Source: an archaeon (GTDB taxonomy: Archaea; Asgardarchaeota; Thorarchaeia; Thorarchaeales; Thorarchaeaceae). Taken from it: a DNA stretch of 32,000 nucleotides. Shown piece after piece: positions 1,258-31,686 of the stretch. The notes beneath the pieces were generated by a model. That model was given only the letters and a program-made list of their open reading frames with translations, ran no database searches and was not told the origin of the DNA. The DNA lies in the NCBI GenBank assembly GCA_024275415.1, contig JAJRZD010000034.1:1-32000 (forward strand), read 5' to 3'. Each line of letters starts with the position of its first letter. Positions within the stretch are counted from its first letter, which is position 1. The position numbers were made by a program, and so were the translations under genes.

Positions 1258-2349
1258 ATGCGCATCAGTAGCTATTCGAAGATATTGGTCTTATCATTGA
1301 CCCTCCTGCTAGTCCTTTCTAGCGTTCCCAGGACAGTGAGCGCGCAGTCACCCGACCTTGATCCTCTCGTAGTCCTGTATGATGTAAGTCATGAGCCGCA
1401 GTTCGCACCTGATGATGAGGATGGGTTCAAACTAATGCTGGACATGGTGAACGAATCGACCAAATACATCGTCCGAGTGAATTCTGACCCATTGAATGAA
1501 ACCATTCTCCATGATGTTGATGTGCTAGTTATCGCTGATCCCGACAAGTCTGCACTTTTTGAGCAAGAAGAGGTTCTTGCTATCGGCGAGATGATGGCAA
1601 ATGGGAGCTCGCTTCTTTTGCTTGGCGACCCTGTAATAAGTCAGAACACTTCTGTGTATTGGAATGAACAGTTGTTCCGTGATATCGGCGAGAATCAAGC
1701 CCTCAATACACTCATGGATCAACTGAACATTACCGGTGTCCGATTCAGTTTGAATGATACTGGTGAGGACATCTGGGGTGATTCGATGTTCGACTATGAG
1801 AAATCGATAAACTCCACATCGATGCCGTTTGTCATCCAGCTTGACACGACCACATGGGACACCAGTCATCCTATCTTCAATGACATCAACTCGTTGTTGA
1901 CGATGTCTGCAACATTGAAGCCCACTGAGGCCGCATCTGTAATTGCTCATAGCTATGACACGACCTTTGCTCAATATCGAGCTGGTCCTAACGCTTTTGC
2001 CAATCTTACCTATCCCAATATGACCATTGCAGAGTTCGAAGAGCGACCATTATCCTATTCGGCAATAAATGGAACCTATCCCGGTTGGATTTCTGCATTC
2101 GAGTATGACGATGCCAGAATCATAATATCTGGTTCATCAATAATGTTCAGTGGCAAGACACTGCCAGAGGTAGATTCTGAGGAACAATGGTTCTATCAAG
2201 CTGACAACTCCCGACTGTTCATGAACATGCTGAACTGGTTGACAGAAGGCTTCATAGACAGCCCCAATGCCATAGTTCCGATGGCTATCATCTCCTCGGT
2301 AATCCTGATTGTCGGTGTAGCAGTATACGTGTTCAAGAAGATCAGATAG
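1258..2349 (+). CDS. Secreted, C-terminally membrane-anchored GIFT (GldG/IFT52/Wbp1-type, GATase-like fold) glycoprotein
   Basis: Signal peptide ending TVSA-Q. VLYDVSH...DVDVLVIADP...GSSLLLLGD...RIIISGSSIMFS...NSRLFMNMLNWL is a typical GIFT pattern. Ten N-x-S/T sequons, one C-terminal TM helix and a KKIR tail. Confidence 0.7.
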   Translation: MRISSYSKILVLSLTLLLVLSSVPRTVSAQSPDLDPLVVLYDVSHEPQFAPDDEDGFKLMLDMVNESTKYIVRVNSDPLNETILHDVDVLVIADPDKSALFEQEEVLAIGEMMANGSSLLLLGDPVISQNTSVYWNEQLFRDIGENQALNTLMDQLNITGVRFSLNDTGEDIWGDSMFDYEKSINSTSMPFVIQLDTTTWDTSHPIFNDINSLLTMSATLKPTEAASVIAHSYDTTFAQYRAGPNAFANLTYPNMTIAEFEERPLSYSAINGTYPGWISAFEYDDARIIISGSSIMFSGKTLPEVDSEEQWFYQADNSRLFMNMLNWLTEGFIDSPNAIVPMAIISSVILIVGVAVYVFKKIR

Positions 2350-2971
2350 CATACCATTCCGGCGGGGCAATACCCCTGCTATCTAACTCTTCTTCGATGG
2401 CTGCTCGTAGTTTCTCAGTCCCTTCTCTTCGGACAGCAGATGTAACAATAATGATTGGGGAAGACGCAGGAAACGACTCGATTAGTTTCTGTTCTAGAAA
2501 TGCCAACTCGCCCGATACTCTCCGTTTTTTCACTTTGTCAATCTTGTTTGCTACAACTATCACTGCTGGCGATATCTCTGAAAGGAAACTATAGAATTCC
2601 ACATCTATTGGGATCTCTCCTCGAGCATCCCACCTCTCAAAGAGTTCCCGAAACAGCGAGATATCAATAATTAAGATGGCAAGTGCAAGTTTGTCACTCC
2701 ATTTCTCTAAATCCCTAACAATCTTGTCCTTTGTCCGTTCTATCTCTTCCTTGCTTTGCCCCTTCATGTAGCCGAATCCCGGGAAATCAACGAATCTAAC
2801 TGATCCCATATCAATCTCGATGTTCCATCTGGTGCTACCAGGCTTCTTCCCAACTCGTACACGTTTACCAGTGAGCGCCCTTATTGTACTGCTCTTACCC
2901 ACATTGCTCCTTCCCGCAAACACCACGAGTGGAGTCGTCTTTTCAGGTCCAGAACGGTTTTGTGCGCTCAT
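2342..2971 (-). CDS. engB: EngB/YihA-family GTP-binding protein
   Basis: G1 GRSNVGKSS, G2 KPGSTR, G3 DFPGFG, G4 NKID, G5 TSA. Start set at ATG 2971. Confidence 0.9.
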   Translation of the reverse strand: MSAQNRSGPEKTTPLVVFAGRSNVGKSSTIRALTGKRVRVGKKPGSTRWNIEIDMGSVRFVDFPGFGYMKGQSKEEIERTKDKIVRDLEKWSDKLALAILIIDISLFRELFERWDARGEIPIDVEFYSFLSEISPAVIVVANKIDKVKKRRVSGELAFLEQKLIESFPASSPIIIVTSAVRREGTEKLRAAIEEELDSRGIAPPEWYAI

Positions 2972-5789
2972 ATTCCTTCTCCGCCTCTGCAATAGATTTT
3001 AGAAGTTTCAATCTATCCTCGATTTGTCCCGGCCGCAAGAGTCTTGATGCAGTCACAGGCCCGATGCCTCTTCCCGCAAGCACCATGAGTGCAAGTTTTC
3101 CATAGTGTGCGACCAGATTTGCAGTAAGATTCCCTCTCTTGAAAATCTTCTCCTCCTCGTTACTTAGAGTCTTACCTGTCCTTCTTTTTTTTACTATCTT
3201 TATGAATCCCTCTGTGGATGGGGGGAGAGCAGCAATCATTCTAGACCCGCAAACTGGACAACTGATTGTTTCTTCCAATGTGGAAATAGTTCTTGTGGAC
3301 ATCCAATCGGCACTGCCTATGCATACCAGTCTGAACCGCTTTGATAGTAATCGTTCCTCTATCATTCGAAGCACTTCGTTCTCCTCCGTAATCTCGCCCA
3401 TTACCTCAAAACGAGTCTTTTCCTCAACGATTAGTCGTCCGAGAGCTGATGGTGTTTCAACAAGCACGGTGTGCACCTCAATCTCTCCTTTTGCTACTGC
3501 ATCAAATATCGCAATAGCTCTGGACTCATCAAGTTTTTCAAGAAGTACTTCTCGGAGCGTTTCTTCGTAGACTGGCGACCCCTCGTATGCTTTAATCAAC
3601 CTACTCACAGGTATTTCGTTCATCTTCGCATCATGTCTAATAACATTCATCCGTTTTCCCACATGGACAAACCTTGTTGCGAAGGTCTGAGTATGTTTTA
3701 ATGCAAGCCGCAAAATCTCAGAAACCTGTTTCGCAGAATAATCATAGAATACATCTTTGATTTGAGTTGATGTGACTCTATCTGAAGAAGTGAACAGAAT
3801 TCGGTAGGGGTCTCTTTCAACACCAATGGTTTTCCCTAGTCGTGTGGTAAGAAGTGCTGCAATTACCAGTCCAATGGTTTCGTTCACGCGCGTTCCATAT
3901 GGCATGTGAATCACAGTTCCCTCCATGAATTCCTCGATCACCATACGTTTCGCAGATGGCAGTGCTCCCAGCTCTGCATATGCCCTTCTTACGACCTGAA
4001 TGAGGTGTTCTTGAGCTTGTGATGAGATATGATACTCCTTCTCCAGTTTTTGTTTGAGAAGAGGTTCCTTCATTATTGGAACCATGTTCAATACAGTCGC
4101 CACTTCCACTGCAACATTGAATGGCACAGGAATCATTTCACCAATCCATCTTGGTGCTTCAACCTCTGTTCCAGTCACGGGAGCACACAATACTTCGTCT
4201 GTGTCCTCGTCAACTGAAACAACCTGCCAGGGCTTCCCTCTGATAACAAAGACCGAACCCTGTGCGACATTCTGCATCACATAGTATTCATCCAGCACCC
4301 CTATGCTTGTCCGTGTCGTAATATCAACAGCCCGCACTTGGCGCACATCAGGGATAGTGCTGAGATTCTCATAGTAACTATTACGTGTCATCCTTCCTTT
4401 TTTGATGGTGTCTTCCGCAACCTGAACCATCTTCCTATTTTCCATGAAGGCAAGAAGGGACTGCAATTCTTCTATTGAAACATCCTTGAATGGATATGCC
4501 GCCTGAATGAACGAATGCAGCTCGGTTTGATTGATTTGTCCTTTGTCCAGTAATATTCCATTAATTTGCTGAATAAGGACATCCCACGATTTGCAAGGGA
4601 TCATCGCATCTTCGACCTTGTTCAATCTTGCTCGCCGCAATATCACACCAGATTCCGCGACATCATCCAAGTTCATCGTGGCAATAACTATTCCTTTGGG
4701 TGTCCGTCCAATGCCATGTCCAGCCCGACCAATCCTTTGTAGCGCACGTGAAACCTCTCTGGGAGACGAGTATTGAATGACAAGATCTGCCTGGCCAATA
4801 TCAATTCCAAGCTCTAGGCTTGAAGTTGCAATAATCGCTCTGGAATGTCCTCGCTTCAATCTATTCTCCGCATCAAGACGAACATCTTTTGCCAGAGATC
4901 CGTGGTGGACATCGAACTCAAAGGAAGGACGTACAGCACGCATTTTTGAACCGAGAACCTCTGCAAAGGATCTTGTGTTCGTGAACACTAGTGTGGATTT
5001 ATGCTCCTCGATTAGTTGAACAATCCTGTCAAGCCGTGCAGTTGAATGAATTGGATATGACAGGAAGTGTGCCTGTTCCTTGTGCTGTTCTAGTGGAATT
5101 GGCATCTCGACATGTATGTCCATCCTCCTTTTACCGTATCCTGCCCAAAGCGTCTTGACTGAGCGATTTCCTCCCACTAGCAACCTAGCAACTTCCTTTG
5201 GATTTCCCACTGTGGCTGAGAGTCCAATTCTCAGCATCCTTTCATCATTGACCAATCGCGAAAGCCGTTCAAGCCCTAACGACAACTGCACTCCCCTTTT
5301 GCTTTTTGCAAGCTCGTGAATCTCATCGACTACCACTGCAAACACAGTCTTCAGGTGCTCCCGCATTCGTCTTCCGGGAAGGATTGCCTGTAGTGATTCG
5401 GGAGTTGTAATCATAAAGTGAGGAGGTGTAAGGGCCTGTTTGCGGCGATGATATTGTGTTGTATCGCCGTGGCGAACGGATACCGTAATCCCAAGGTACT
5501 CGCATAATGTTTCAATTCTCTTAAACACATCCCTGTTGAGTGCCTTTAAAGGTGTGATATAAAGGATGTAGTTCCCATATAGGTCGTTTCTTATCTTATA
5601 GCGGTAAAGTCGATCCAATAAAGGCAGGATTGCCGCTTCTGTCTTACCACTCCCCGTAGGGGATAATAGAAGAGCGTTCTCAGTCCCTCTGATGAGCACA
5701 GGTATTGCTTTCTCTTGGATTGCAGTAGGTTTCGTGATCCCTTGCGATACCAAAAAAGATACGATTTTTTTGTGAAGCGACTTGAACAT
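2943..5789 (-). CDS. lhr: Lhr-family SF2 DExH helicase
   Basis: Q motif PTAIQEKAIP, SPTGSGKT, VVDEIHE, GLSAT, HHGSL, QRIGRAGH, Lhr-type WH/domain 4, C-terminal CPVCGS and KPFW end. Confidence 0.92.
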   Translation of the reverse strand: MFKSLHKKIVSFLVSQGITKPTAIQEKAIPVLIRGTENALLLSPTGSGKTEAAILPLLDRLYRYKIRNDLYGNYILYITPLKALNRDVFKRIETLCEYLGITVSVRHGDTTQYHRRKQALTPPHFMITTPESLQAILPGRRMREHLKTVFAVVVDEIHELAKSKRGVQLSLGLERLSRLVNDERMLRIGLSATVGNPKEVARLLVGGNRSVKTLWAGYGKRRMDIHVEMPIPLEQHKEQAHFLSYPIHSTARLDRIVQLIEEHKSTLVFTNTRSFAEVLGSKMRAVRPSFEFDVHHGSLAKDVRLDAENRLKRGHSRAIIATSSLELGIDIGQADLVIQYSSPREVSRALQRIGRAGHGIGRTPKGIVIATMNLDDVAESGVILRRARLNKVEDAMIPCKSWDVLIQQINGILLDKGQINQTELHSFIQAAYPFKDVSIEELQSLLAFMENRKMVQVAEDTIKKGRMTRNSYYENLSTIPDVRQVRAVDITTRTSIGVLDEYYVMQNVAQGSVFVIRGKPWQVVSVDEDTDEVLCAPVTGTEVEAPRWIGEMIPVPFNVAVEVATVLNMVPIMKEPLLKQKLEKEYHISSQAQEHLIQVVRRAYAELGALPSAKRMVIEEFMEGTVIHMPYGTRVNETIGLVIAALLTTRLGKTIGVERDPYRILFTSSDRVTSTQIKDVFYDYSAKQVSEILRLALKHTQTFATRFVHVGKRMNVIRHDAKMNEIPVSRLIKAYEGSPVYEETLREVLLEKLDESRAIAIFDAVAKGEIEVHTVLVETPSALGRLIVEEKTRFEVMGEITEENEVLRMIEERLLSKRFRLVCIGSADWMSTRTISTLEETISCPVCGSRMIAALPPSTEGFIKIVKKRRTGKTLSNEEEKIFKRGNLTANLVAHYGKLALMVLAGRGIGPVTASRLLRPGQIEDRLKLLKSIAEAEKEYERTKPFWT

Positions 5790-5791
5790 GC

Positions 5792-6040
5792 TTATCCCAT
5801 AGATCTTATGCGGGACTCGTGTTCGACTTCATTTATGAGTATGCGTATGTCTGTAACCATCGTTACATCTTCATTCTCCGCTCTTTCCCTCAAAATCCTG
5901 ATACATTCTTCTAGGTTTTTTCGCTCCGCTAGCATCTCATCCACCCATGACTTTACGGTTTTGAGATTCGTTATATGGCCTGCGACATTCTCAAAAGCAA
6001 TTAGAAGAATAGGACGAGTGACCATGGGAACCTCTCCCAC
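5792..6040 (-). CDS. Small helical hypothetical protein (start GTG 6040 or ATG 6025)
   Basis: Fills the gap exactly, and the stop lies 2 nt before the lhr ATG. GGGAGAGG SD precedes ATG 6025. No family recognised. Confidence 0.65.
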   Translation of the reverse strand: MGEVPMVTRPILLIAFENVAGHITNLKTVKSWVDEMLAERKNLEECIRILRERAENEDVTMVTDIRILINEVEHESRIRSMG

Positions 6041-6049
6041 TATTGGTGT

Positions 6050-6175
6050 TTACTCCTCCTCTGTTGGATCTGTTCCATATACAGTATAGGCTAGAATCAG
6101 CACTAGGGCAAATATACCCATCGCGTCAAGCACGACGAATATGACAGATTTGAGGAAATCCGGGTCAAACTGCAT
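6050..6175 (-). CDS. 41-aa single-pass membrane miniprotein, Ost4-like candidate
   Basis: Below the ORF-track cutoff; hand translation MQFDPDFLKSVIFVVLDAMGIFALVLILAYTVYGTDPTEEE. One TM helix, a TATA-like TTATAA about 30 nt upstream, and the stop lies 9 nt before the next gene. Confidence 0.65.
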   Translation of the reverse strand: MQFDPDFLKSVIFVVLDAMGIFALVLILAYTVYGTDPTEEE

Positions 6176-6205
6176 TGGAATCTTGCCTCTTCGGATGACC
6201 TATGC

Positions 6206-6211
6206 TTATAA
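6206..6211 (-). promoter_or_regulatory. Putative TATA box for the miniprotein-hypothetical-lhr-engB string
   Basis: TTATAA 31-36 nt upstream of ATG 6175, the spacing expected for a short-leader archaeal transcript. Confidence 0.4.
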
Positions 6212-6320
6212 TCATTGCTGAATGATGATTGCTGTACTATACTCGGCTCTTTGCTAAAGGTGACAATTGGATCGTTAACGACCTACTGATTGACGAATGA
6301 CATCATTGCCCATCAAACGA

Positions 6321-6569
6321 TCATTCTATAGATTTTGCCTGATAAAAACGATCGATGAAATCGCCATAGACATCTACTGGTTCTGTCAGTGAATTTACCG
6401 AATCTAATGCCATCTCCAACGAGCATGATCCACACTTGATAGTCGCTAGGCCATTGTCTTTGTATACTTCTATCTTGATGGAGGTGTTCCCGCAATTTGG
6501 ACAAGGATATACATCAGGTATCCGTCTTTGTGGCCGTCGTTGAACCTTTTGTCGTCGGCGTCTTCCCAT
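6321..6569 (-). CDS. elf1: Transcription elongation factor Elf1
   Basis: Basic MGRRRR N-terminus, YPCPNCG...CGSC zinc ribbon, EPVDVYGDFID motif. Confidence 0.93.
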   Translation of the reverse strand: MGRRRRQKVQRRPQRRIPDVYPCPNCGNTSIKIEVYKDNGLATIKCGSCSLEMALDSVNSLTEPVDVYGDFIDRFYQAKSIE

Positions 6570-6741
6570 TTCTCATCACCCATGTTTGCCTATCTCACAC
6601 AAGAGGAAACTAACGGCCTCCAGTAGAAATAGAGCAAGCCGTTCCTGAAATGTATTCATTTAAGCATTATGTTGAGTGATTTATTGGTTGTTTTGTGTTC
6701 TTTCGAAGCTTTATTATCTGACAATGTACGGCAGAGCAACT

Positions 6742-6975
6742 ATGCCCGACCTGTCACGCGATGCTCAATGTGTTTTAGCTATCCTCAAAGAGGAGGACAA
6801 TCTCACCACATCTGAAATACTTGAACGTGCGAGGAATCCTAAATTCGCAGATCTATGTACCGATTGTGCCGGCGGTGATGCGTTTGTAGTGGCAGCAAAC
6901 CAGTTGGTGGAGCAGAATCTAATCTCAAAGAGGTTTGGCAAGGGCGGGTACAGATGGCACCTTATAACGAGTTGA
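6742..6975 (+). CDS. Small winged-helix protein with a CxxC motif
   Basis: VLAILKEEDNLTTSEILERA...LCTDCAGG...LVEQNLISKRFGKGGYRWHL is a wHTH with a terminal wing. It ends 7 nt before sufS. Start set at ATG 6742. Confidence 0.7.
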   Translation: MPDLSRDAQCVLAILKEEDNLTTSEILERARNPKFADLCTDCAGGDAFVVAANQLVEQNLISKRFGKGGYRWHLITS

Positions 6976-6982
6976 ATCAACA

Positions 6983-8224
6983 ATGACCGAGTGGGAACAG
7001 ATTCGAGGAGATTTTCCAGTTCTGAAACGCCTTATCAATGGAAAACCATTGGTCTACCTAGATAGTGCATGCATGGCACTGAAACCTCGACAGGTTATCA
7101 CAGCCATGAACGAATATTACGAGCAATTTCCCGCCTGTGGTGGGAGAAGTATTCACAAGCTGGGTGAGGAGGCATCGAACGCTTATTCTGCTGCACGTGA
7201 GAAGTTCGCAAAGTTCATCAACGCATCTGAACCGGAGGAGATTATTTGGACTCGGAACGCAACAGAATCATTGAACATCGTTGGTCGTTGTCTACGTCTC
7301 CCAAAGAAATCTAAAATCATCACGACTTCACTTGAGCACCATAGTGGCTCGCTGCCATTTGTAGAACGGGCACGAAGAGATGGACATTCAATCGAGATAG
7401 TAAACGCACGATCTGATGGCACATTCGATATAGAAGATTGGAAAACCGCTATCGACTCGGATACAAGCCTGATTTCTGTTGTCCACTCATCCAATGTCAC
7501 TGGAACTGTTGCACCCTTAAAGGAGATTGTTGAATTGGCTCATGACAAGGGTGCACTGGTTATGTCTGATGACGCACAGTATGTCCCACACCATCCACTG
7601 GATGTGCAAGCTTTTGATGTTGATTTCTCTGCAATCTCAGTCCACAAGATGTGCGGCCCGACTGGCATGGGTGTGCTCTATGGAAAAGCAGAGCATCTTG
7701 AGGCCATGGACATGTTCATGCATGGTGGCGATACCGTCAGAGACGTGAAATACGTCGATGGACAAATCATTCCAGAATATCTGCCTCCTCCGGAGAAATA
7801 CGAAGCTGGACTTCAGAACTACGCCGGAGCCATAGGCGCTGGTGCTGCTGCTGATTATCTTCAGAGCATTGGTATGCACGAGATCGAGAAACATGAACGT
7901 TCGTTGCTTTCGATGGCGCTAAATGAGCTTACGAGTATGGAACATGTTCACATCATAGGAACCGACGACATCTCAATCAAGACAGGTCTTGTCACGTTCA
8001 ATGTTGATACGGTTGATTCGGCACATGACATCGCTACGTTCCTCAATGACGAGTTCAATGTGATGGTAAGATCTGGGGCACACTGTGTGCATCCATTCCA
8101 CTACCAACTAGGCATCCCTATAGCAACAGGGACTGCACGTGCGAGTTTCTATCTGTATAACAACAGGAACGATGTAGAAATCTTCCTCGAGGGCATGAGA
8201 TCCTTGATTGAAGCATCCTCCTAG
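6983..8224 (+). CDS. sufS: SufS-type (group II) cysteine desulfurase, PLP-dependent class V
   Basis: VYLDSA, TRNATESLN, SLEHHS, DDAQ, PLP lysine SVHKMCGPTG, catalytic RSGAHC, ARASFYLYN. Confidence 0.9.
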   Translation: MTEWEQIRGDFPVLKRLINGKPLVYLDSACMALKPRQVITAMNEYYEQFPACGGRSIHKLGEEASNAYSAAREKFAKFINASEPEEIIWTRNATESLNIVGRCLRLPKKSKIITTSLEHHSGSLPFVERARRDGHSIEIVNARSDGTFDIEDWKTAIDSDTSLISVVHSSNVTGTVAPLKEIVELAHDKGALVMSDDAQYVPHHPLDVQAFDVDFSAISVHKMCGPTGMGVLYGKAEHLEAMDMFMHGGDTVRDVKYVDGQIIPEYLPPPEKYEAGLQNYAGAIGAGAAADYLQSIGMHEIEKHERSLLSMALNELTSMEHVHIIGTDDISIKTGLVTFNVDTVDSAHDIATFLNDEFNVMVRSGAHCVHPFHYQLGIPIATGTARASFYLYNNRNDVEIFLEGMRSLIEASS

Positions 8225-14123: not shown

Positions 14124-14128
14124 TCTGG

Positions 14129-16490: not shown

Positions 16491-17288
16491 ATGTCCAAGT
16501 ACCGAATTGCTCTTGCAACGAAAAACCCCAGAACCTTCTACATCGCAGTTAAGATTCTCAAAAGGTTGGCGTTGGCATTCCGTTCTTGTACACCAAATGA
16601 TCAGTACTGCAAGGAGGCAAATCTAGTTATCACAACATCCGAAGAGGTTGACGATACTGGATGTGAACACCTGCTCGTCATCGATGAAATGCCCGACGAA
16701 TCGACAACATCGCTTGATGTTATGATGCACTATCTGTCGCTAATACCTCCACGCGAAATCGCTATTGGAATTGACCCTGGATTACACAACGGGATTGCGG
16801 TTCTTGTAGATGGAACACCCTCGTTTGGCCGTGTCCTTGTGTCACCAATTGATACATCAGCACTCGTTACCAAGTTGGTAGTGCATGTTGAAAGCAAATA
16901 CCCCTTAAGTCGAGTCTATATTCGCATAGGGATTGGATCCAAACTCCACTCAACACTCTTGCTCCGAGAATTAGTACGAAGGTTGCCTGCTTCACGTCTA
17001 GAAATGGTAGACGAACGAAACACTACCACTCAAGGAGGATATTTTAAAGACCAATTCTCTGCAGAGCTGATAGCACTGCGCCCCGGTCGAGGGCACACAG
17101 CAGACGACTTGAAGCTGGAGCCAAAAAGAGGTTTCATCCGTGGACTACAACATCTTTTCACATGGTTGACCGATAATAAGGAAACCCTATCCATCGAGTC
17201 TGTCAGGCAAATCCTGAGGGGCGATATCACATTGGAAGACGCTCTCAGCATTCATGAAACACCTGAAAAGAACTCCTCTACCGCCTGA
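16491..17288 (+). CDS. RNase H-fold protein with a YqgF/RuvX-like nuclease domain
   Basis: IAIGIDPGLHNGIAVL (beta-1 catalytic Asp), MVDERNTT and DQFSAELIA match the YqgF pattern GxD...DERxTT...DxxAAxxI. Extra N- and C-terminal segments are present. Confidence 0.65.
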   Translation: MSKYRIALATKNPRTFYIAVKILKRLALAFRSCTPNDQYCKEANLVITTSEEVDDTGCEHLLVIDEMPDESTTSLDVMMHYLSLIPPREIAIGIDPGLHNGIAVLVDGTPSFGRVLVSPIDTSALVTKLVVHVESKYPLSRVYIRIGIGSKLHSTLLLRELVRRLPASRLEMVDERNTTTQGGYFKDQFSAELIALRPGRGHTADDLKLEPKRGFIRGLQHLFTWLTDNKETLSIESVRQILRGDITLEDALSIHETPEKNSSTA

Positions 17289-19183: not shown

Positions 19184-19295
19184 CTGAGATTCACTTCCCT
19201 GTAAATACCAAGCTTGATAATCATGTTGCTCGCTGTCCATGTACAGCGTGAATTGTTTTATAGTAAAGTCATATTCCTAGATGTGGTTTCAAAAG

Positions 19296-19637
19296 ATGAA
19301 TGCTGACATCACCGAATTCGAATCGAGATACTCTGGAGGTTCGCTGCGAGTAAGGCTCATTGAGCTGGAGAATGGACTACTAGTCCTCCTCTCTGATGCA
19401 GAGCGATTCAGAATAGGACAGACCGCTATGGCGATACCTCCCGGACAAGGTCGTACAGAACCTACCTCTACTGGGGTATTTTCTGGTGCAATGGACTCCG
19501 CTTTGATAAGGACGATTGCTGAACGGATTGCTGCAATGACCGGACAGGCTTGCATGGTGGTGTCTGGCATCCGCGAGATGACTCGAAACATCATGATGGA
19601 AATTGTGGTGATACTCAAGAACCATCTTGTTGCATGA
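19296..19637 (+). CDS. Proteasome assembly chaperone 4 (PAC4/PSMG4)-like protein
   Basis: Length and pattern (ITEFESR...LIELENGLLVLL...AMAIP...PTSTGVF...IAERIAAMTGQACMV) align with human PSMG4 as recalled (LHNFSAR...VMRLTDSLFLWV...LAVAM...PVSTSLL...LAQRLARKTNKQVFV). Confidence 0.6.
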   Translation: MNADITEFESRYSGGSLRVRLIELENGLLVLLSDAERFRIGQTAMAIPPGQGRTEPTSTGVFSGAMDSALIRTIAERIAAMTGQACMVVSGIREMTRNIMMEIVVILKNHLVA

Positions 19638-22036: not shown

Positions 22037-22453
22037 ATGAAACCTTGGTGGCCGAGGATAATTGTAAAACCCCGTGTACGACTTGGAAGACCTCGTTTCA
22101 CGACTCCCACACGCCCTCCAGGCATAATATTATTCGGTCTTCTTTTCGTTGCTGTCTTATTCATCCTTGGTGGGAACATATACACGCTTGTTAGAACGCC
22201 ACCTCCAATCGCCAGTGATGGTTCAGGAAATCCCATTCTTATTGCCCCTGCAGTCGATGTCCAACTAGGGCTCGAGGGGATTGTCGCATCTGTTATTGTG
22301 TTGATAGGCACAATTGGCCTTAGCCTCATATATTACGCATCCAGATACATATTCCAGCCTGGGTACGCGACAAGATTGCTCATCCTTGGAGTGATAGTGG
22401 CAGGAGTCGCATTTCTCGCCTTTGCCTATCTATTTAATATCAAGACATCATGA
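22037..22453 (+). CDS. OSTC/DC2-like oligosaccharyltransferase subunit (OST3/OST6 family TM module, no thioredoxin domain)
   Basis: Three TM helices. LFILGGNIYTLVRTPPPIAS...VQLGLEGIVAS...IGTIGL parallels human OSTC as recalled ([21 protein letters not shown]...GQYIMEGLASS...MGGLGF). Confidence 0.8.
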   Translation: MKPWWPRIIVKPRVRLGRPRFTTPTRPPGIILFGLLFVAVLFILGGNIYTLVRTPPPIASDGSGNPILIAPAVDVQLGLEGIVASVIVLIGTIGLSLIYYASRYIFQPGYATRLLILGVIVAGVAFLAFAYLFNIKTS

Positions 22454-23271: not shown

Positions 23272-24444
23272 TCATATAATCTTCTCAATCCTCTTACCAA
23301 TATCAGAGAGACCAAAATAGGTCATCATTTTTATCTTGCCCACAAGCCCCCTTATCTGCCGGTCTGTCCCCATTATCAACATGTCAGTCTTTTCAATGGC
23401 ATGGTCAATGGTATCATAATGATATGCTGCATCTCCTCCGAGTGCAAGCATCTCCTGCTTTATTATCAATGCAGCTGGAGCCGATAACCCTCGCAGGACT
23501 ATCTGGTTCATGACTCCCTTTTGAGATAACTCGTGTCGTATCTCACCCCCTACGCCAATCTTCTCAAGCAAAAGCTCAACCTCATGCCTATCTGACAGCG
23601 CAAGAACCTCAATCTGTCCGTCATAAACGGTGTTAACACTAAGAGCCTCTCCAACCTTTGACGCGATACATGCCTCTGCAACATCATGTGCACGTATCAC
23701 ATCTACTCCCTTCATGACCGCAATGGACGTAACGGCAACCGTGCCAGTAAGCCGCTTCTCCGGATTAGGTTCCCCCAAAAGGGCTCCGATGAATGCCTTC
23801 CGTGAAACTCCTACTAGGATGGGCCTTCCGAAGATATGAAATCGAGTCAATCTCCGAAGAATGTCAAAATCAACCTCTGGGGGTTTGCCAAAGCCGATTC
23901 CTGGATCCAAAATTACCTTCTCTAACTCTATCCTATTGCGCTTCGCAATCGCTATGCTTTCCTCTAATGATGCATATGATGCGTTAGCTGAAGAACACCC
24001 ATCAGGACAGTTGGACATCAGGACAACAGGTATCGCTCTCTCTGCAATGAGTTTCGCCATTTCTGAATCCCCTTTGAGCCCTGACACATCATTCACAATG
24101 TCTGCTCCCATATCAAGAGCAATCTCAGCAACGGTGGATGAAGTCGTATCGATCGAGATTGGGAGGCTTGTTTCTTTACGAATGATTCCCATTGCAAAAG
24201 ACACCCTCTCCAACTCTTTCTCCTCTTCCACTTTCGTGGTTCCGTAGACTCCTGATGGGGCAGTCGACGCCCCTCCGATATCGATTATGGTCGCTCCCTG
24301 AGATTCCATTGTCCGGACGCAATTCCGTAAGGATTCTTCATCCCCAAATACAGATCTCTGGTAGAACGATTCTGGCGATAGGTTGATGACTCCCATGACT
24401 CTTACTGGGTTGTCACCGCCAATTGCCAGCCCCTTGATGGTCAT
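23272..24444 (-). CDS. folP: Dihydropteroate synthase with an extra C-terminal domain
   Basis: VMGVINLSPESF, DIGGAST, ISIDT, NDVSG, DPGIGFGK, GVSRK, IRAHDV, followed by about 110 extra residues (IIKQEMLALGGDAA...MGT). Start set at ATG 24444. Confidence 0.9.
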   Translation of the reverse strand: MTIKGLAIGGDNPVRVMGVINLSPESFYQRSVFGDEESLRNCVRTMESQGATIIDIGGASTAPSGVYGTTKVEEEKELERVSFAMGIIRKETSLPISIDTTSSTVAEIALDMGADIVNDVSGLKGDSEMAKLIAERAIPVVLMSNCPDGCSSANASYASLEESIAIAKRNRIELEKVILDPGIGFGKPPEVDFDILRRLTRFHIFGRPILVGVSRKAFIGALLGEPNPEKRLTGTVAVTSIAVMKGVDVIRAHDVAEACIASKVGEALSVNTVYDGQIEVLALSDRHEVELLLEKIGVGGEIRHELSQKGVMNQIVLRGLSAPAALIIKQEMLALGGDAAYHYDTIDHAIEKTDMLIMGTDRQIRGLVGKIKMMTYFGLSDIGKRIEKII

Positions 24445-24550
24445 TGCATCTCTCCGCATCTGGGATTCCCCGCTGGCATTGACCCCATGGAAGGAAATAA
24501 AACATAGCTCTATTTGGCAAGCTCGCCCAAAACCTAGGAGGCAGTATCTC

Positions 24551-25693
24551 ATGAACGGAGAACTACAACGCACCCACTTGTATGATTGGCACAAGCAACA
24601 CGGCGATCTCGTCCCCTTCGGCGGTTGGGAGATGCCTGTCCGCTACTCTGACATCCGCGAGGAACACATGGCTGTACGCAATTCAGTAGGATTGTTTGAC
24701 ACTTCACATATGACTCGCTACGTCATCTCTGGTTCACAAGCCGTAGATTTTCTCCAACGAGTGACGACGAACAACGTGCGCAAGTTGGCGATTAATGGGG
24801 GTCATTACTCAACGTGCCTTAACGAGAAAGGCGGGGTACGGGATGACCTCATGTTGTATAGGATTGGTGAGGCTGAGTTCATCTGGGTGACGAATGCTGC
24901 GAACGGGCCGAAGATACATGCGCATCTTCTCAATCATGCTAAAGATTATGATGTCACCATAACCGACAGATCCAGAGATATTGTGATGATTGCGGTTCAA
25001 GGCCCCAATGCAATGCCTCTTCTTTCAAAGATGGCTGGGAAACAGATAGATTACGGTCGTTTCACATGTAACCCCGTGAGGCTGGCAGGATATGATACCT
25101 ATTTGTGCAGAACCGGCTATACTGGTGAGGACGGTGGTGAGATTCTTCTCTTGGACACTCCCTATGGGGACGAGGGCAATGCAAAGGCAATAGGCTTCTG
25201 GGAGGAGATACTACGCGAGGGAGATGAATTCGGGATACACCCCTGTGGTCTTGGTGCACGTGACTCGACCCGCCTTGAGGCCGGGTTCGTGCTGTACGGG
25301 CATGAGCTGAACGAGGAAACATCACCAATTGAGGCAGCGATACCTTATGCGGTGAAGCTTAAGGTCGAGCCCCACTACATCGGCTATGATACTGTGTACA
25401 GGCATAAGAAAGAAGGAGTTTCAAAGAAACGGATTGGGTTCGTAATGATTGACAGAGGAATTCCTAGAGAAGAGTATCCCATTCTCCTCGATGGGACTCA
25501 AATAGGGGTCACCACTAGCGGTGGACTCTCTCCAGTCCTGAAGACAGGGATTGGGATGGGATATGTGCCCCCTGATACGGTAAAAGAAGGGGACATCATC
25601 GAGATTGACATAAAGGGAAGGATTCGGAAGGCAAAGGTCAAGAAGTGGCCCTTTTATGACCCCGACGAGTATGGTGCAACAAGGTCGCAATGA
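24551..25693 (+). CDS. gcvT: Glycine cleavage system T protein (aminomethyltransferase)
   Basis: RTHLYDWH, FGGWEMPVRY, GLFDTSHM, DDL, VQGP, RTGYTGEDGGE, CGLGARDSTRLEAG. AGGAGG SD before ATG 24551. Confidence 0.95.
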   Translation: MNGELQRTHLYDWHKQHGDLVPFGGWEMPVRYSDIREEHMAVRNSVGLFDTSHMTRYVISGSQAVDFLQRVTTNNVRKLAINGGHYSTCLNEKGGVRDDLMLYRIGEAEFIWVTNAANGPKIHAHLLNHAKDYDVTITDRSRDIVMIAVQGPNAMPLLSKMAGKQIDYGRFTCNPVRLAGYDTYLCRTGYTGEDGGEILLLDTPYGDEGNAKAIGFWEEILREGDEFGIHPCGLGARDSTRLEAGFVLYGHELNEETSPIEAAIPYAVKLKVEPHYIGYDTVYRHKKEGVSKKRIGFVMIDRGIPREEYPILLDGTQIGVTTSGGLSPVLKTGIGMGYVPPDTVKEGDIIEIDIKGRIRKAKVKKWPFYDPDEYGATRSQ

Positions 25694-26300: not shown

Positions 26301-29063
26301 ATGTCAACATTCAGTAAGTTCAAGAGATCCGCCGGACGATTCCTTCGGCAGATCTTTCATAGACCAAAGGCGAAGATCTCACGAGGTTCAGTCCTCATAA
26401 TAATGGCAATGGCTCTGATATTCTTTGCAGCTCTTATCTTGCGCTTGGAACCGCTTATCAACTCGCAACCAATCGTGCGGGCATTTGACCCGTGGTTTCA
26501 GCTGAAAGTAACAGAGTATGTGGCAGAGAATGGGTACATGTCCTTCTTCAACTGGTATGACTATTCAACATGGGTTCCGTATGGCCGGGACATGACCTCT
26601 ACCAGTTATATTGGCGTTCCATTCACCAGTGCCTTCTTCTACTGGGTCGCCAACAATCTTGGGATTGAAGTGTCAGTGCTCACTGTTTCTCTAGTTCTGC
26701 CAGCAATAATGGGCGCGCTGACGACAGTCGTTGCGTTCTACCTTGGACGTGAGGTTTCAAACAATACAGTGGGCATGCTTACTGCGCTGTTCTTGGCTTT
26801 CATGCCTGCATTCATCCAACGCACGGTCGCTGGATTCTATGATAATGAAGCAATTGGAGTCTTTGCAATAGTACTTACGTTATACCTCTTCACACGAAGC
26901 CTGAAGAGAGGTTCTGCTCTCTCAGGGATCGGAGGCGGCCTTGCATTAGCATATCTTCTGGCATCATGGGGTGCTGGAGATTTCATGCTTGGCTTACTGT
27001 CTCTCTATGGGTTCTTCATGCTGATTGGTGGTAGATACAGCCATCGACTGCTCACTTCGTATACCATTACAATCTCCTTGGGGATATTTCTCGGAGTACT
27101 TGTCCCTAGAAACGGGTTCGGAACCCTTACCTCCATGACTTACCTAGCAGCGATTGGTGTTGGTGGACTACTCGCCTTATTTGAGATATGGCAGAGAATT
27201 GGAAAGTACCGCGCGACAACGGCCTCGGTACTCGCGCCACATATGAGGTCTATCGTTCTCGGTCTAATTGCTCCAATTATCGGAATTGTGGGTTACTCTG
27301 TCTATGTATCCAGCACAGAGCTTGAGATTGTCACAACAACATCCAACCCAATCACATTTATTGGCGGAAAATTCACGAGTGTCATCAATCCATTCTTTAG
27401 ACTTGACCAACGGATTTTCGCTTCAGTAGCTGAGCATCTACCAAGTCCATGGGCAAGTTTCTATCAGACTCTACTGGTGCTGATTCTTTTCTTCCCATTG
27501 GGCTTGTATTTTGCCTATAGACGCGGCAGGGATGAGGACTGGCTCATTCTCCTTTTCGGTGCCACGGCCGTTTATTTCACTGGCAGCATGATCAGACTGG
27601 CTCTGATACTTGCACCTGCTGCGGCAATACTTGCGGCAATCGCCGTGAACGGCATCCTCGTGCCTTTCGCAAAAATTGTCAAACAGCAATCAGTGTTTGA
27701 ACGCAGACGGTTCCGGATGAGTTCGTCCCTGACATCAGAACATGCCATTACGGCATTCGCATTTGTCGGACTCCTGTTGTCAGTGAATGTCGTACTAGGT
27801 GTCGTATATGTCACCCAAGGAGTGGGTCCGCCGGAGTTTGCACCAGCTGAGATCACATCACAAGGGCAAGTAACTGATTGGCAAAGTGCAATGACCTATA
27901 TTCGGAACGTCTTGCCAGACAGTGCCACGATTGCAAGCTGGTGGGACTACGGGTACTGGATCAATGGCGCTTCTGGGGCTAAGACAATCGTTGATAACGC
28001 GACGTTCAACAGCACGCAGATAGCTTTAATGGGATATGCGTTGATGTCGCTCAATCTCACCGAGTCACTACGCACCCTCAGTCAGTGGAACACAACCCAT
28101 GTTCTTGTGTACTGGGGACACAGAAGTGGGTACTTTGGTGGTGATGATGGTAAATGGCCATGGATGGTTCGAATCGCAGAGGATAATCTTGGATCCGATA
28201 TGATTGATGATACAACATATCTGGGTGATAATCCTGCTACACCAGACACAGAGGAAACCGAGTACACCCTTGATGCGTTCTTCCAGTCCACCCTCTACAA
28301 GCTTATGCTTTATGACGAGCCAGCTGACCAGACCGAAGCCCAATCAATGGGTCTCTCTGATACACGACAGCAGCTCGATAATATCTACTGGCAGGACAGC
28401 GACTCACGGTGGGTTTCGAATATTCCCTCTGACCTCTATGGTGCGTTCAACCTCGAGTTCATCAGCTATTCATACGGTACAGTCAAACTGTATAGCATCG
28501 ATTACACCATGCTAGAACAATACAACAACAAGACTGCAGCAGACTGGGTTCCTGATTTAGATGTTCTAGATGATGTGAGTCTCGATGGTAACCTTTCCAC
28601 TTCCGAATTAGCGTTCTCCAGTTATGATCTCGTATTTGGTGGTGGATATGATGCCAAGGTCTACACACGATCGAACTCCACTCATATTTACTATGGGATT
28701 CAGATGGACAACTACACCATAGGTGAGGACGCCTTCGGTCTACAGATATCTCCAATAGACTCGACCGATACTGGTGACCTCAAACTTGTCAACTACGAGG
28801 ACCAAGACTATTTCGACGGTTACATCGATTACTATGGGGATTGGACTGAGGATGCCAGTGGATCCGACTCGTCAGAGTATGCAACAGGTGAGCGCGTCAT
28901 CGAGTTTCTCCTCCCACTGTCATCAGATGACTCACACGATCTGAACATGACCGGTGGGATGAACTACCAGATCCGCTTCCTGTTTTGGAACAATGCGAAC
29001 ACAGGTAATCCGACCCTTGATAGTGACTGGACAATCATCTGGGTACCTGTCGAACTCCATTAG
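26301..29063 (+). CDS. aglB: Oligosaccharyltransferase AglB/STT3 with a C-terminal acidic beta-rich extension
   Basis: FDPWF, YDNE, SWG, SVAEH, WWDYG (27939-27953), DNATFN and DDGKWPWMVRI, with about 13 TM segments. Confidence 0.96.
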   Translation: MSTFSKFKRSAGRFLRQIFHRPKAKISRGSVLIIMAMALIFFAALILRLEPLINSQPIVRAFDPWFQLKVTEYVAENGYMSFFNWYDYSTWVPYGRDMTSTSYIGVPFTSAFFYWVANNLGIEVSVLTVSLVLPAIMGALTTVVAFYLGREVSNNTVGMLTALFLAFMPAFIQRTVAGFYDNEAIGVFAIVLTLYLFTRSLKRGSALSGIGGGLALAYLLASWGAGDFMLGLLSLYGFFMLIGGRYSHRLLTSYTITISLGIFLGVLVPRNGFGTLTSMTYLAAIGVGGLLALFEIWQRIGKYRATTASVLAPHMRSIVLGLIAPIIGIVGYSVYVSSTELEIVTTTSNPITFIGGKFTSVINPFFRLDQRIFASVAEHLPSPWASFYQTLLVLILFFPLGLYFAYRRGRDEDWLILLFGATAVYFTGSMIRLALILAPAAAILAAIAVNGILVPFAKIVKQQSVFERRRFRMSSSLTSEHAITAFAFVGLLLSVNVVLGVVYVTQGVGPPEFAPAEITSQGQVTDWQSAMTYIRNVLPDSATIASWWDYGYWINGASGAKTIVDNATFNSTQIALMGYALMSLNLTESLRTLSQWNTTHVLVYWGHRSGYFGGDDGKWPWMVRIAEDNLGSDMIDDTTYLGDNPATPDTEETEYTLDAFFQSTLYKLMLYDEPADQTEAQSMGLSDTRQQLDNIYWQDSDSRWVSNIPSDLYGAFNLEFISYSYGTVKLYSIDYTMLEQYNNKTAADWVPDLDVLDDVSLDGNLSTSELAFSSYDLVFGGGYDAKVYTRSNSTHIYYGIQMDNYTIGEDAFGLQISPIDSTDTGDLKLVNYEDQDYFDGYIDYYGDWTEDASGSDSSEYATGERVIEFLLPLSSDDSHDLNMTGGMNYQIRFLFWNNANTGNPTLDSDWTIIWVPVELH

Positions 29064-29123: not shown

Positions 29124-29176
29124 TCAAAATAGATGAAAAATAAGCGTCTGCAATGAAGGTGAAGGAGTATGTCTAT

Positions 29177-29353: not shown

Positions 29354-29359
29354 GAACCC

Positions 29360-30154: not shown

Positions 30155-30196
30155 CGATATCACCTTCCTTGAGAACCTTGTCCGAGCATCCTTGTC

Positions 30197-30397: not shown

Positions 30398-30569
30398 TTA
30401 TGTTCACCGCTGTATCTTGAAGTTTCACTACCACCCTGTGAGGCGGAAAATCACCCACCAAGGGCTTCTTTCCGTCGGGGTTAAGTATCATTATAACTCT
30501 ATCGACATACCACTTGTGATTCCCGTTAGAGTTAGTTTGTATCAAATGCAACCCGTGACTTTCTGTCAT
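30384..30569 (-). CDS. 61-aa hypothetical ORF between rpl44e and rps27e
   Basis: ATG overlaps the rpl44e stop (ATGA) and the stop falls 14 nt into rps27e. No family recognised; could instead be a non-coding leader. Confidence 0.4.
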   Translation of the reverse strand: MTESHGLHLIQTNSNGNHKWYVDRVIMILNPDGKKPLVGDFPPHRVVVKLQDTAVNIIAQT

Positions 30570-30847
30570 CCACGCGCAACTTCGACCTTCTTGAGCCTCA
30601 TGCCTTTGCCCTGAACGATATGTCCGCACTCAGTACACTTGTACTTTAACATCGTCTTCTTGGTCGTCTTGGCAAATCGCTTCTGGATCGGCTTCGGGAA
30701 CGACCCGTACCCTCTCGTCTTTCTCTCCATCCGCCTCTTTCCTTCAGCCATACTCCTCTCCTTCCCTTTTTTGTAGACCGAAATTTGATGTACCTGATGT
30801 GACTTACATCTTGGGCAATACTTCCGAAGCTGATTTACCATTTTCAT
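30566..30847 (-). CDS. rpl44e: 50S ribosomal protein L44e (eL42)
   Basis: YCPRCKSH...GYGSFPKP...KTTKK...KCTECG. Start set at ATG 30847 (GGTGA SD); the ORF-track extension to 31093 looks spurious. Confidence 0.95.
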   Translation of the reverse strand: MKMVNQLRKYCPRCKSHQVHQISVYKKGKERSMAEGKRRMERKTRGYGSFPKPIQKRFAKTTKKTMLKYKCTECGHIVQGKGMRLKKVEVARG

Positions 30848-31491
30848 AATCTTCACCGATTCCAAGGAGATATATGTTGATGGTGACGCGCTAGGACACT
30901 TCTTAACCTTATCGCTTTGGCAACAGTGCTCGATATCATGTTGTTTCTGGCCTTGCTCAAGCTCATGGTTACAGTGGGATGATCTGGCATTGCCGGATGA
31001 TGGATGTTGAACATTGCCGTTTATTGTATGTTGTACAACCTTTGACACCCGAGTGTTGCACTCCCAGATAACGGCACTGGGTGGAATCTGCAAGGCCGTT
31101 TGTGTGTCATGTCGTCTTCATACTCCTGTGAGAGTGGTAGAGTATATACGCCCCAAAAATTACTTCAAGTGTCCAATCTAAAGGATGTCTAAGTTCGCGT
31201 AAGTTTGTGCAGCTGTTTGCAATCCTCGATCCCACAGTTGTATCTTGGAAGCATTCCATCAAGGAACAGCTAATGTGTGGGCAATGTTCTGTTGCTGCGC
31301 ATATATCCATCTGGAGCAATTGTGACTATTCGGTTGTACACTTCTGTGAATTCTCAAAACGAATCGTTTGGTTCCCATTTTATTTGCCTTTTAGGCCAGA
31401 CAAATCGCGTTCGCTGTATCGTACATCTTGGATAACATGTTCCGACTTGTATGTTCCCTATCCTGTAAGGAGCAGTTCTCATTTCTCAACA

Positions 31492-31686
31492 TTATGCTCC
31501 CGTCGCAAAGACATGCGCCAGAATTGTCACAGCCACAAGTATAGATGAAAAGATGATAACGAGGGTAGGACCCACCTTTATCCCAGGTGTTTCATCTTCG
31601 AAGAACCGAATAAGACCTGCCCCGCCGCTTGGCATGCCAGCTCCACCGTCTCGTTTCCTCTTCCGTTTGCTTCCAGTCTTGGGCAT
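31492..31686 (-). CDS. sec61b: Sec61beta/SecG translocon subunit
   Basis: GAGLIRFFEDETPGIKVGP plus a single C-terminal TM helix. AAGGAGG SD before ATG 31686. Confidence 0.93.
   Translation of the reverse strand: MPKTGSKRKRKRDGGAGMPSGGAGLIRFFEDETPGIKVGPTLVIIFSSILVAVTILAHVFATGA

Follow-up and report, generated by a model that had tools for sequence, protein, structure and literature searches.

A conserved block of the Thorarchaeia chromosome carries genes for STT3/AglB, an OSTC/DC2-like protein and a miniprotein predicted to be an Ost4-like partner of STT3

The window, by which we mean the whole stretch of 32,000 nucleotides analysed here, belongs to a genome of Thorarchaeia (Asgard archaea) with a completeness of 92.9%. 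Five of its open reading frames were singled out by the initial annotation as possible parts of a eukaryote-like oligosaccharyltransferase (OST) and its translocon, i.e. genes for a GIFT-domain membrane protein, an Ost4-like miniprotein, an OSTC/DC2-like protein, STT3/AglB and Sec61beta. All five are present where they had been placed, the miniprotein gene however on the minus strand; the plus strand of its interval (6050-6175) is interrupted by stops. The OST-related genes do not constitute a single operon, in line with the caution given there. In the half of the block between 1 and 14 kb, gene order is kept in relatives with only about 54% identity in the GIFT protein, and in two relatives STT3 lies ~22 genes from the GIFT gene, as counted by locus tags. 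A DC2-like gene is also found 4-7 kb from STT3 in the genomes G016, G086 and G103, the only spacing to be found again in another class. An explanation by chance clustering was set aside, as the conserved gene order in relatives makes the co-location mostly inherited synteny. The window represents a conserved housekeeping block of the Thorarchaeia chromosome, and the clustering of OST genes mostly reflects that block.

Sec61beta (31492-31686, minus strand) is an ordinary archaeal translocon subunit, correctly named from the outset. It matches Pfam Sec61_beta (PF03911) with E 2e-14 and possesses the C-terminal membrane anchor of the family; NCBIfam PRK01253 is matched at E 7.4e-14 and 51.2 bits, just below the model cut-off of 55. 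The gene adjoins those of L44e, S27e, aIF2-alpha and Nop10. Being a universal archaeal gene beside ribosomal genes, it says nothing on the docking of an OST.

The catalytic OST subunit STT3/AglB is encoded at 26301-29063 (plus strand, 920 aa), as had been proposed. Pfam STT3 (PF02516) is matched with E 1.3e-50 and 173.5 bits over residues 32-445, the N-terminal multi-helix membrane domain. The WWDYG motif occupies residues 547-551, and a DK motif of the form DxxKxxxM is located at residues 615-622 (D615, K618, M622) in the C-terminal external domain; both motifs are invariant across 21 STT3 orthologues. STT3 is single-copy, with one match in a profile search of the 92.9%-complete genome. Its cytosolic N-terminus is basic and conserved in the alignment of orthologues.

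The OSTC/DC2-like gene (22037-22453, plus strand) codes for a protein of 138 aa with three membrane helices, which matches Pfam OST3_OST6 (PF04756) with E 9.1e-11 and 42.1 bits (cut-off 27) at profile positions 185-288 of 294. A profile built from 20 orthologues has OSTC chains as its only matches in the PDB, with 6s7o_H at E 8.3e-6 in a nearly full-length alignment (profile 12-128 against chain 15-134 of 149), and thus bears out the name given to the gene. The thioredoxin domain with CxxC of the Ost3/Ost6/TUSC3/MAGT1 branch is absent from the 138-aa protein, in which ~30 residues precede the first membrane helix. In size, in its three helices and in being closest to OSTC it corresponds to the OSTC/DC2 branch (about 140-150 aa, three membrane helices). 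The protein is present in 60 of 61 genomes of the class. In mammals, DC2 mediates the contact between OST and translocon (PMC5674889). This nearest solved relative is one of the points in favour of a reading in which all five genes make up a proto-eukaryotic OST that docks on the Sec translocon via the DC2-like subunit, with the GIFT protein as a one-domain equivalent of OST48/Wbp1; its remaining evidence concerns the GIFT protein and is treated below.

Outside the window, the genome search recovered Ost5 on contig 32 and a ribophorin I-like protein on contig 123. DAD1 (Ost2) and OST48_N were not found by profile searches of the genome, which at its 92.9% completeness means not found rather than absent. 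Swp1/ribophorin II gave no match there either, a result of little weight given that the ribophorin II profile matched in no genome. This inventory fits the published distribution, according to which homologues of STT3, Ost3, Ost1, Ost4 and Ost5 occur in most Asgard classes, while Ost2, Wbp1 and Swp1 are reported only in Heimdallarchaeia, with Wbp1 also in Njordarchaeales (PMC10307638, Eme et al. 2023). Asgard OST subunits had already been reported by Zaremba-Niedzwiedzka 2017, as that work is cited and extended in PMC10307638. Accessory OST homologues in Asgard archaea, which the initial annotation treated as known, are therefore indeed in print, and the present findings refine this general idea and do not constitute its discovery. 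The published homologues include an "Ost4". The miniprotein of the window is invisible to Pfam Ost4.

The miniprotein (6050-6175, minus strand) comprises 41 aa with one hydrophobic membrane helix and an acidic C-terminal tail. Its gene occurs in all 43 sampled Thorarchaeaceae genomes in a constant position downstream of Elf1. Conservation is seen at the protein level, with M1, G20, Y30 and G34 invariant in the Thorarchaeaceae loci examined and a G-x9-Y pattern invariant in the family. Upstream lies a BRE/TATA-like block (6204-6220, minus strand; TTATAA at 6206-6211, 31-38 nt upstream of the start codon) of the form cagcaat-g/c-g/a-TTATAAG, situated at equal distance in all 23 Thorarchaeaceae loci compared, for which we infer a promoter role. 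Because of its conservation in 43 of 43 genomes, the conservation at the protein level and the upstream block, the miniprotein gene is a genuine gene and more than a chance ORF. In the annotation of two public relatives (L010, L011) the ORF remains uncalled. A search for RNA or DNA sequencing runs over positions 5500-7000 yielded no entry.

The gene that follows begins within about 25 nt and encodes a soluble four-helix protein of the MJ1579/PF2048.1 family (5792-6040, minus strand; 77-82 aa); genes for the helicase Lhr and a GTPase come next. PF27357 (MJ1579) is carried by atlas neighbours of the four-helix protein, and its AF2 model (pLDDT 93) has Pyrococcus PF2048.1 (6ns8_A, Z 10.4) as best structural match. 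The tight linkage and shared orientation of the miniprotein gene are hence with a pan-archaeal MJ1579-like gene and the gene of the DNA-repair helicase Lhr, and with none that serves glycosylation. The pair of miniprotein and ~80-aa gene, with about 10-25 nt between them, is kept in Thorarchaeaceae, G016, G086 and G076 and is the most faithful linkage of the miniprotein. It is the first argument for a miniprotein unrelated to glycosylation, a small membrane partner of the MJ1579-like protein or a subunit of another membrane complex, whose predicted docking on STT3 would be an artefact. Members of the MJ1579-like family outside Asgard, in Hadarchaeota and in Pyrococcus (PF2048.1), point in the same direction.

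With 41 aa and a single hydrophobic helix, the miniprotein has about the dimensions of Ost4 (roughly 35-40 aa, one membrane helix), a subunit on which the stability of Stt3 and the recruitment of Ost3/Ost6 depend in the eukaryotic enzyme. Similarity to Ost4 was not detected at the sequence level, which is again compatible with a role outside the OST: Pfam Ost4 (PF10215) gave no match to the miniprotein at E<=1 and, in the genome search, none on the ORF at E<=10, and the profile of the miniprotein family matched no OST4 chain of the PDB at E<=10. Searches of Pfam, NCBIfam and PDB sequences with the miniprotein returned noise only (phage holin, E 0.048; CorA, E above 2). Across 201 Asgard genomes nothing exceeded the cut-off of Pfam Ost4, and what came near it were different short ORFs in which L-x-Y-H or L-H-Y occurs; in contrast to the miniprotein, a short ORF of the Asgard family f9 does match human OST4. 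Human OST4 also has G and Y 10 apart in the alignment, as does the miniprotein. Elsewhere in Thorarchaeia no Pfam-recognisable Ost4 was found, and the Ost4 slot is therefore otherwise empty.

The complex model places the miniprotein on STT3 with an ipSAE of 0.81 in three runs, against 0.00-0.01 in three controls (best 0.01), which were unrelated natural proteins and not other one-helix membrane proteins; one of them kept the miniprotein and replaced STT3 by another protein. According to the calibration of the tool, which holds only roughly for the custom alignments used here, the ipSAE mark is reached by 58 of 80 solved complexes and by 2 of 110 mismatched pairs. The partner has a pLDDT of 77, and at least 98% of the contacts are common to the runs. 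The model included the DC2-like chain; the score is given for the miniprotein alone, and no confident contact between miniprotein and DC2-like chain was reported. Modelled contacts on STT3 comprise residues 27-54 (first helix), 154-167, 450-461 and 486-505 (last helix). The predicted orientation is N-out/C-in: residue 17 of the miniprotein comes close to STT3 501, and its residue 27 to STT3 36. The best-defined contacts of the miniprotein are its residues 17-27, a conserved small-residue face including G20 and A23, and in the model its acidic tail adjoins the conserved basic N-terminus of STT3. In yeast, Ost4 is nestled between TMH1 and TMH13 of Stt3, and Ost4 residues 18-24 are critical (PMC7226087).

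These features of the model speak against a miniprotein unrelated to glycosylation: the score is lost when STT3 is replaced, site and orientation match Ost4 specifically, the predicted interface coincides with the conserved face, and the charges of tail and STT3 N-terminus are opposite. Complex predictors, on the other hand, can draw on solved OST structures when they position hydrophobic helices, and the Ost4 groove is a place where they can do so. Taken together, we regard a function outside the OST as unlikely, though with an appreciable chance of being right. Of the Ost4-like label originally attached to the miniprotein, the predicted position in the Ost4 groove of STT3 has gained high confidence in the model, but a sequence match to Ost4 was not obtained.

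The GIFT protein (1258-2349, plus strand, 363 aa) possesses a signal peptide, a single lumenal GIFT domain, a C-terminal membrane helix and the tail FKKIR (KKxR), so that the type I topology and the KKxx-type ending described for it are both seen. The GIFT fold covers approximately residues 34-335; as the membrane helix begins at 339, no second lumenal domain lies between them. Its best Pfam family is ABC_transp_aux with 38.5 bits (cut-off 34.7), while the match to IFT52_GIFT is weak. This family, together with some relatives annotated as "Gldg family protein", would suit an accessory component of an ABC transporter like GldG, in place of a free-standing surface glycoprotein. GldG acts with an ABC transporter; unlike it, the GIFT gene is without transporter genes nearby, both in the window and in the loci L010, L011 and L057. 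Its conserved neighbours are instead genes for a metallophosphoesterase, a SWIM-like protein, a GTPase and Lhr, and with 12.3 bits the protein hardly matches the GldG model at all (cut-off 389.85). We consider a transporter accessory role highly improbable.

Structural comparison brings the GIFT protein close to the N-domains of OST48/Wbp1, the main support for its membership in a five-gene, translocon-docked OST. The top match in Foldseek is OST48 (6s7t_G, E 1.2e-7), and Z-scores of 16.6 and 16.1 are obtained with OST48 (6s7o_G) and Wbp1 (6c26_B), respectively. Like these proteins and the Wbp1-like proteins of Heimdall/Njord type, it combines a GIFT-type alpha/beta ectodomain, a signal peptide, one C-terminal membrane helix and a short tail with KK at -4/-3; KK is found there in 88 of 119 GIFT orthologues. 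Weak matches to OST48_N occur in 19 of 72 distant relatives, and in three families the GIFT gene is located within 1-8 kb of the miniprotein gene. IFT52, however, fits the fold better (PDB 5FMS and 5FMR; Z 19.4 over 204 aligned residues, rmsd 2.7 A), and the sequence profile of the GIFT protein matches nothing else in the PDB, so that the IFT52/GldG/ABC_transp_aux/DUF4350 proteins provide its best fold, PDB sequence and Pfam matches. In feature space, DUF4350 and CGP-CTERM proteins from bacteria and from archaea outside Asgard are among its nearest neighbours.

After a membrane anchor, the positive-inside rule predicts a short basic tail of 4-5 residues such as that of the GIFT protein, and a COPI-type retrieval signal was accordingly set aside as an explanation of KKxx. 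More distant GIFT relatives have long, varied, K/R-rich tails.

OST48_N (PF03345) does not match the GIFT protein at E<=1, nor anything else in the genome at E<=10. Asgard Wbp1-like proteins are longer (402-460 aa, with an extra Ig-like stretch in two) and have a second lumenal domain where the GIFT protein has one. In five genomes (G073, G134, G170, G174 and G206), the best match to the GIFT family is a gene other than the OST48_N-positive one. In the tree, which left out the OST48_N-positive gene of G170, the GIFT clade is split from the Wbp1-like clade with 97/98 support, and the other four genomes carry a Wbp1-like gene besides a separate closest GIFT relative. Since both clades coexist as separate genes in the same Heimdall-type genomes, the GIFT protein is not a Wbp1 orthologue, and the homology to OST48/Wbp1 once suggested for it is not supported. 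Ost2 and Swp1, the subcomplex III partners that such a subunit would be expected to have, are those not found in the genome. A five-gene OST docked on the translocon is, on this evidence, improbable.

In the ectodomain of the GIFT protein, 10 sequons occur where 3.0 would be expected (p about 5e-4), and over the 119 orthologues the median is likewise 10. IFT52 is a cytosolic protein; unlike it, the GIFT protein is extracytoplasmic, membrane-anchored and sequon-rich. A surface protein with heavy glycosylation is the more likely identity, and with it the role of an OST substrate rather than a subunit: the putative product would be a conserved type I surface protein carrying N-glycans, from a clade of paralogues that extends across Asgard archaea.

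The closest known system to the remaining genes is the eukaryotic OST subcomplex II (yeast Stt3-Ost4-Ost3/Ost6, PDB 6EZN and 6C26; human OST-A STT3A-OST4-DC2, PDB 6S7O). Both share a catalytic STT3 with WWDYG and DK motifs and a small partner of the OST3/OST6 family, the thorarchaeal one being closest to DC2/OSTC among solved structures and, unlike Ost3/Ost6/TUSC3/MAGT1, lacking the thioredoxin domain. The third shared element would be the ~40-aa one-helix protein, which like Ost4 is predicted to insert N-out/C-in between the first helix of STT3 and the last one; it differs from eukaryotic Ost4 in having no detectable sequence similarity and in its cytosolic tail, which is acidic where that of Ost4 is basic. 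The thorarchaeal assembly is a predicted one.

STT3/AglB and the two small membrane proteins probably assemble into a core like subcomplex II (Stt3-Ost4-Ost3/DC2). In this core the miniprotein would, in the manner of Ost4, be wedged between the first membrane helix of STT3 and the last, with its acidic tail beside the basic cytosolic N-terminus of STT3, and the three-helix protein without thioredoxin domain would serve as the DC2-like partner. Ost5 and the ribophorin I-like protein, encoded elsewhere, may complete a five-part OST without the Ost2/Wbp1/Swp1 module. While the identities of the genes, their conservation, the genome inventory and the status of the GIFT protein as a paralogue are shown by the analysis, the physical assembly and a descent of the miniprotein from Ost4 are inferred. 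The picture as a whole, i.e. a housekeeping block with a core of STT3, DC2-like and Ost4-like proteins, a GIFT protein as glycosylation substrate and a normal Sec61beta, appears to us rather probable.

There is a slim chance that Thorarchaeia, a class outside the lineage from which homologues of Wbp1, Ost2 and Swp1 were reported, instead employ the Asgard-wide clade of GIFT glycoproteins with one domain as a primitive lumenal OST subunit of the Wbp1 type, with the miniprotein as a highly diverged true Ost4. A lumenal GIFT subunit and the Stt3-Ost4-DC2 core would then date back to the Asgard ancestor, and the DC2-like rather than the Ost3-like form would be ancestral. GIFT fold, type I topology and KKxx tail together do not suffice to identify a Wbp1 homologue, as these traits are found in at least two clades of proteins in Asgard genomes.

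If, as preferred here, the miniprotein and the DC2-like protein assemble on STT3, the Stt3-Ost4-DC2 core of the eukaryotic OST would have existed in Asgard archaea well beyond Heimdallarchaeia. Within the Ost3 family, the DC2 form without thioredoxin domain might in that case represent the older state, and an ancestral OST of several subunits could be reconstituted in a simple way from three proteins.

The window is densely coding with a G+C content of about 47%, and all five features proposed in the initial annotation are present as open reading frames, the miniprotein on the minus strand. STT3/AglB (26301-29063, plus strand; 920 aa) matches Pfam STT3 with E = 1.3e-50 and carries WWDYG at residues 547-551 and DxxKxxxM at 615-622. 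A 138-aa protein (22037-22453, plus strand) lies above the cut-off of Pfam OST3_OST6, aligning with the membrane-helix part of that profile. The 363-aa GIFT-type protein (1258-2349, plus strand) carries a GIFT-type domain and a C-terminal helix besides its signal peptide, and its tail reads FKKIR; its Pfam matches are ABC_transp_aux, above cut-off, and a weak IFT52_GIFT. The one-helix miniprotein of 41 aa is encoded at 6050-6175 (minus strand), where the plus strand is closed, and Sec61beta (31492-31686, minus strand) is identified by profile matches.

Housekeeping genes fill the rest of the window, i.e. metallophosphoesterase, SWIM-like protein, GTPase, Lhr helicase, Elf1, a cysteine-desulfurase-like aminotransferase, RPA, PolD DP2, CarS, XPD, a PAC4-like protein, type IA topoisomerase, folate and glycine-cleavage genes, Nop10, aIF2-alpha, S27e and L44e. 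The transcription elongation factor homologue Elf1 (6321-6569, minus strand, E = 3.2e-19) occurs in 61/61 genomes of the class. The PAC4-like proteasome assembly chaperone (19281-19637, plus strand) is a weak match, above the PAC_bac and below the PAC4 cut-off; Asgard PAC4 domains are mentioned in the supplement of Eme et al. 2023 (PMC10307638). Between the genes of a RadB-like ATPase and XPD, a 265-aa frame (16491-17288, plus strand) matches no family except DUF460 (E = 0.087). Taken from its TTG start at 24383, the longest GcvT frame shares about 210 nt (24383-24594) with the opposite-strand pterin-binding gene, and since its Pfam match begins only at residue 66, the true start is probably further downstream. 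PolD DP2 of the window has 1189 aa and no intein-splicing match; that of the relative GCA_014728035.1 (L011, 18868-21095) has 1648 aa and such a match.

Homologues of the GIFT protein and STT3 are labelled nearly all as Thorarchaeota. Asgard homologues of all OST subunits have been reported, with Ost1, Ost3, Ost4 and Ost5 in most classes, Ost2, Wbp1 and Swp1 in Heimdallarchaeia only, and Wbp1 additionally in Njordarchaeales (Eme et al. 2023, PMC10307638). The present genome (92.9% complete) agrees with this pattern: genome-wide profile searches find a single STT3, the OST3-family gene of the window, and Ost5 and a ribophorin I-like gene on contigs 32 and 123, respectively, but no match for DAD1, ribophorin II or OST48_N. 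At least three contigs thus share the OST genes between them.

The OSTC/DC2-like gene of the initial annotation is borne out. The 138-aa protein is present in 60/61 genomes of the class, and the PDB chains matched by a profile of 20 orthologues are all OSTC/DC2 (6s7o_H at E = 8.3e-6, over almost the whole length), with no Ost3, Ost6, TUSC3 or MAGT1 chain. With three membrane helices and without a thioredoxin domain, the protein is thus more exactly named "OSTC/DC2-like" than by the OST3/OST6 label of the literature.

The miniprotein is a real gene. A 37-41-aa frame of the same shape lies directly downstream of Elf1 in every Thorarchaeaceae locus examined, with M1, G20, Y30 and G34 invariant and an acidic C-terminal tail. 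Its family profile matches 43/43 sampled Thorarchaeaceae genomes and, more weakly, 35-40-aa frames (approximate lengths) in four further Asgard genomes (G016, G086, G076, G081). The block cagcaat-N2-TTATAAG, read as a putative BRE/TATA promoter, precedes the start codon by 31-38 nt in each of the 23 Thorarchaeaceae loci listed. The next gene begins at most about 25 nt further on; its product, a four-helix protein of 77-82 aa, belongs to the MJ1579/PF2048.1 family, and Lhr and a GTPase come after it. The pair of miniprotein and four-helix genes (window 5792-6175, minus strand) repeats in G016, G086 and G076 and is seen at L057 (3603-3961), L054 (2971-3369) and L056 (1725-2153); it occurs in several Asgard families. 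The four-helix protein measures 75-86 aa across loci (AF2 pLDDT 93; Pyrococcus PF2048.1, 6ns8_A, Z 10.4, 28% identity), and its family extends beyond Asgard to Hadarchaeota and Pyrococcus. Nearby, a calcineurin-like metallophosphoesterase (minus strand) and a 135-aa SWIM-like protein (plus strand) lie head to head close to the Lhr-type helicase (1-1161, 2943-5789), which looks like an Lhr-MPE-type DNA-repair neighbourhood; in G086 (L054) the phosphoesterase/SWIM-like pair adjoins the miniprotein gene.

The proposed Ost4-like character of the miniprotein is supported by predicted structure, not by sequence. Pfam Ost4 does not match it in direct or genome searches, and OST4 chains are absent from the PDB matches of its family profile at E ≤ 10. 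Recognisably Ost4-like short frames occur in other Asgard genomes, one from family f9 aligning to human OST4 only; none was found in Thorarchaeia, which leaves the Ost4 slot otherwise vacant in that class. A complex of the miniprotein with STT3 (residues 1-700) and the DC2-like protein, predicted with an alignment for each chain, gave ipSAE 0.81 in three runs, and the best of three controls gave 0.01; in the tool's calibration the former mark was attained by 58/80 solved complexes and 2/110 mismatched pairs. The runs had at least 98% of contacts in common, at a partner pLDDT of 77. In the model the miniprotein packs against the first (residues 27-54) and last (486-505) membrane helices of STT3 and against STT3 residues 154-167 and 450-461. 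Close to the outer face, miniprotein residue 17 meets STT3 501, and close to the cytosolic face residue 27 meets STT3 36, which would orient the miniprotein N-out/C-in. According to the review PMC7226087, yeast Ost4 sits between the Stt3 helices TMH1 and TMH13, and its residues 18-24 are critical; the predicted interface of the miniprotein includes its conserved G20 and A23. G15 and Y25 of human OST4 are spaced like G20 and Y30 of the miniprotein; the OST4 tail is basic and that of the miniprotein acidic. Because the prediction may draw on solved OST complexes, its controls were other than one-helix membrane proteins, the alignments were self-made and the tail is acidic, we lean only somewhat towards a miniprotein that works like Ost4.

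The GIFT protein, put forward as an OST48/Wbp1 candidate, is not the Wbp1 orthologue. Its AF2 model (pLDDT 71) has a single GIFT domain (about 34-335) with the anchor helix immediately after, and resembles IFT52 (Z 19.4), human OST48 (16.6), the site-1 protease C-terminal domain (16.1) and yeast Wbp1 (16.1), followed by ThuA-like proteins; the fold is that of GIFT and is not specific to OST48. Its sequence profile finds IFT52 only in the PDB. An exhaustive profile search yielded 312 relatives. Among 72 relatives of similar length, IFT52_GIFT matches 44, ABC_transp_aux 42 and OST48_N 19, the OST48_N match being below cut-off in the ten inspected singly. OST48_N exceeds its cut-off in 5/201 Asgard genomes, against 160/201 matched by the Thorarchaeal GIFT profile, and in those five (G073, G134, G170, G174, G206) the positive gene is not the best GIFT-family match. 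The OST48_N-positive proteins have 402-460 aa, and in two of them an additional Ig-like segment precedes the anchor. An unrooted maximum-likelihood tree without eukaryotic sequences separates five Wbp1-like proteins from 23 others (support 97/98), the latter holding the window's protein and second paralogues from four OST48_N-positive genomes plus G170. The ectodomain carries 10 sequons versus 3.0 expected from shuffles (p ~5e-4; orthologue median 10, n = 119), and KK stands at -4/-3 in 88/119 orthologues. Read most simply, the protein is conserved, lies at the surface and is heavily N-glycosylated, which would make it a client of STT3. A basic tail after a membrane anchor is predicted by the positive-inside rule, which the GIFT protein fits. 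Relatives in other Asgard families bear long K/R-rich C-terminal tails, e.g. a repeated RERRLQQIK-like motif (L110:1483-2595, L112:774-1748, L114:1219-2223, L111:511-1596, L068:1252-2418), in contrast to the 5-residue KKxR tail of Thorarchaeia.

The DC2-like gene lies 4 kb from STT3 in the window and about 5-7 kb from it in G016 (same order) and in G086 and G103 (both of a different family within the phylum); such close spacing is not seen in G081. Because gene order in the 1-14 kb half is kept in relatives with only about 54% GIFT-protein identity, and STT3 is about 22 genes from the GIFT gene by locus tags in two relatives, co-location of the candidate OST genes mostly reflects inherited housekeeping synteny and not an operon; that the genes are not one operon the initial annotation had itself cautioned. 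Its observation is confirmed, and its reading as a proto-eukaryotic, translocon-docked OST is supported in part. Asgard OST subunit homologues were already known (Eme et al. 2023, PMC10307638); the two useful refinements are that the Asgard "Ost3" is DC2-like and that the GIFT protein is a paralogue.
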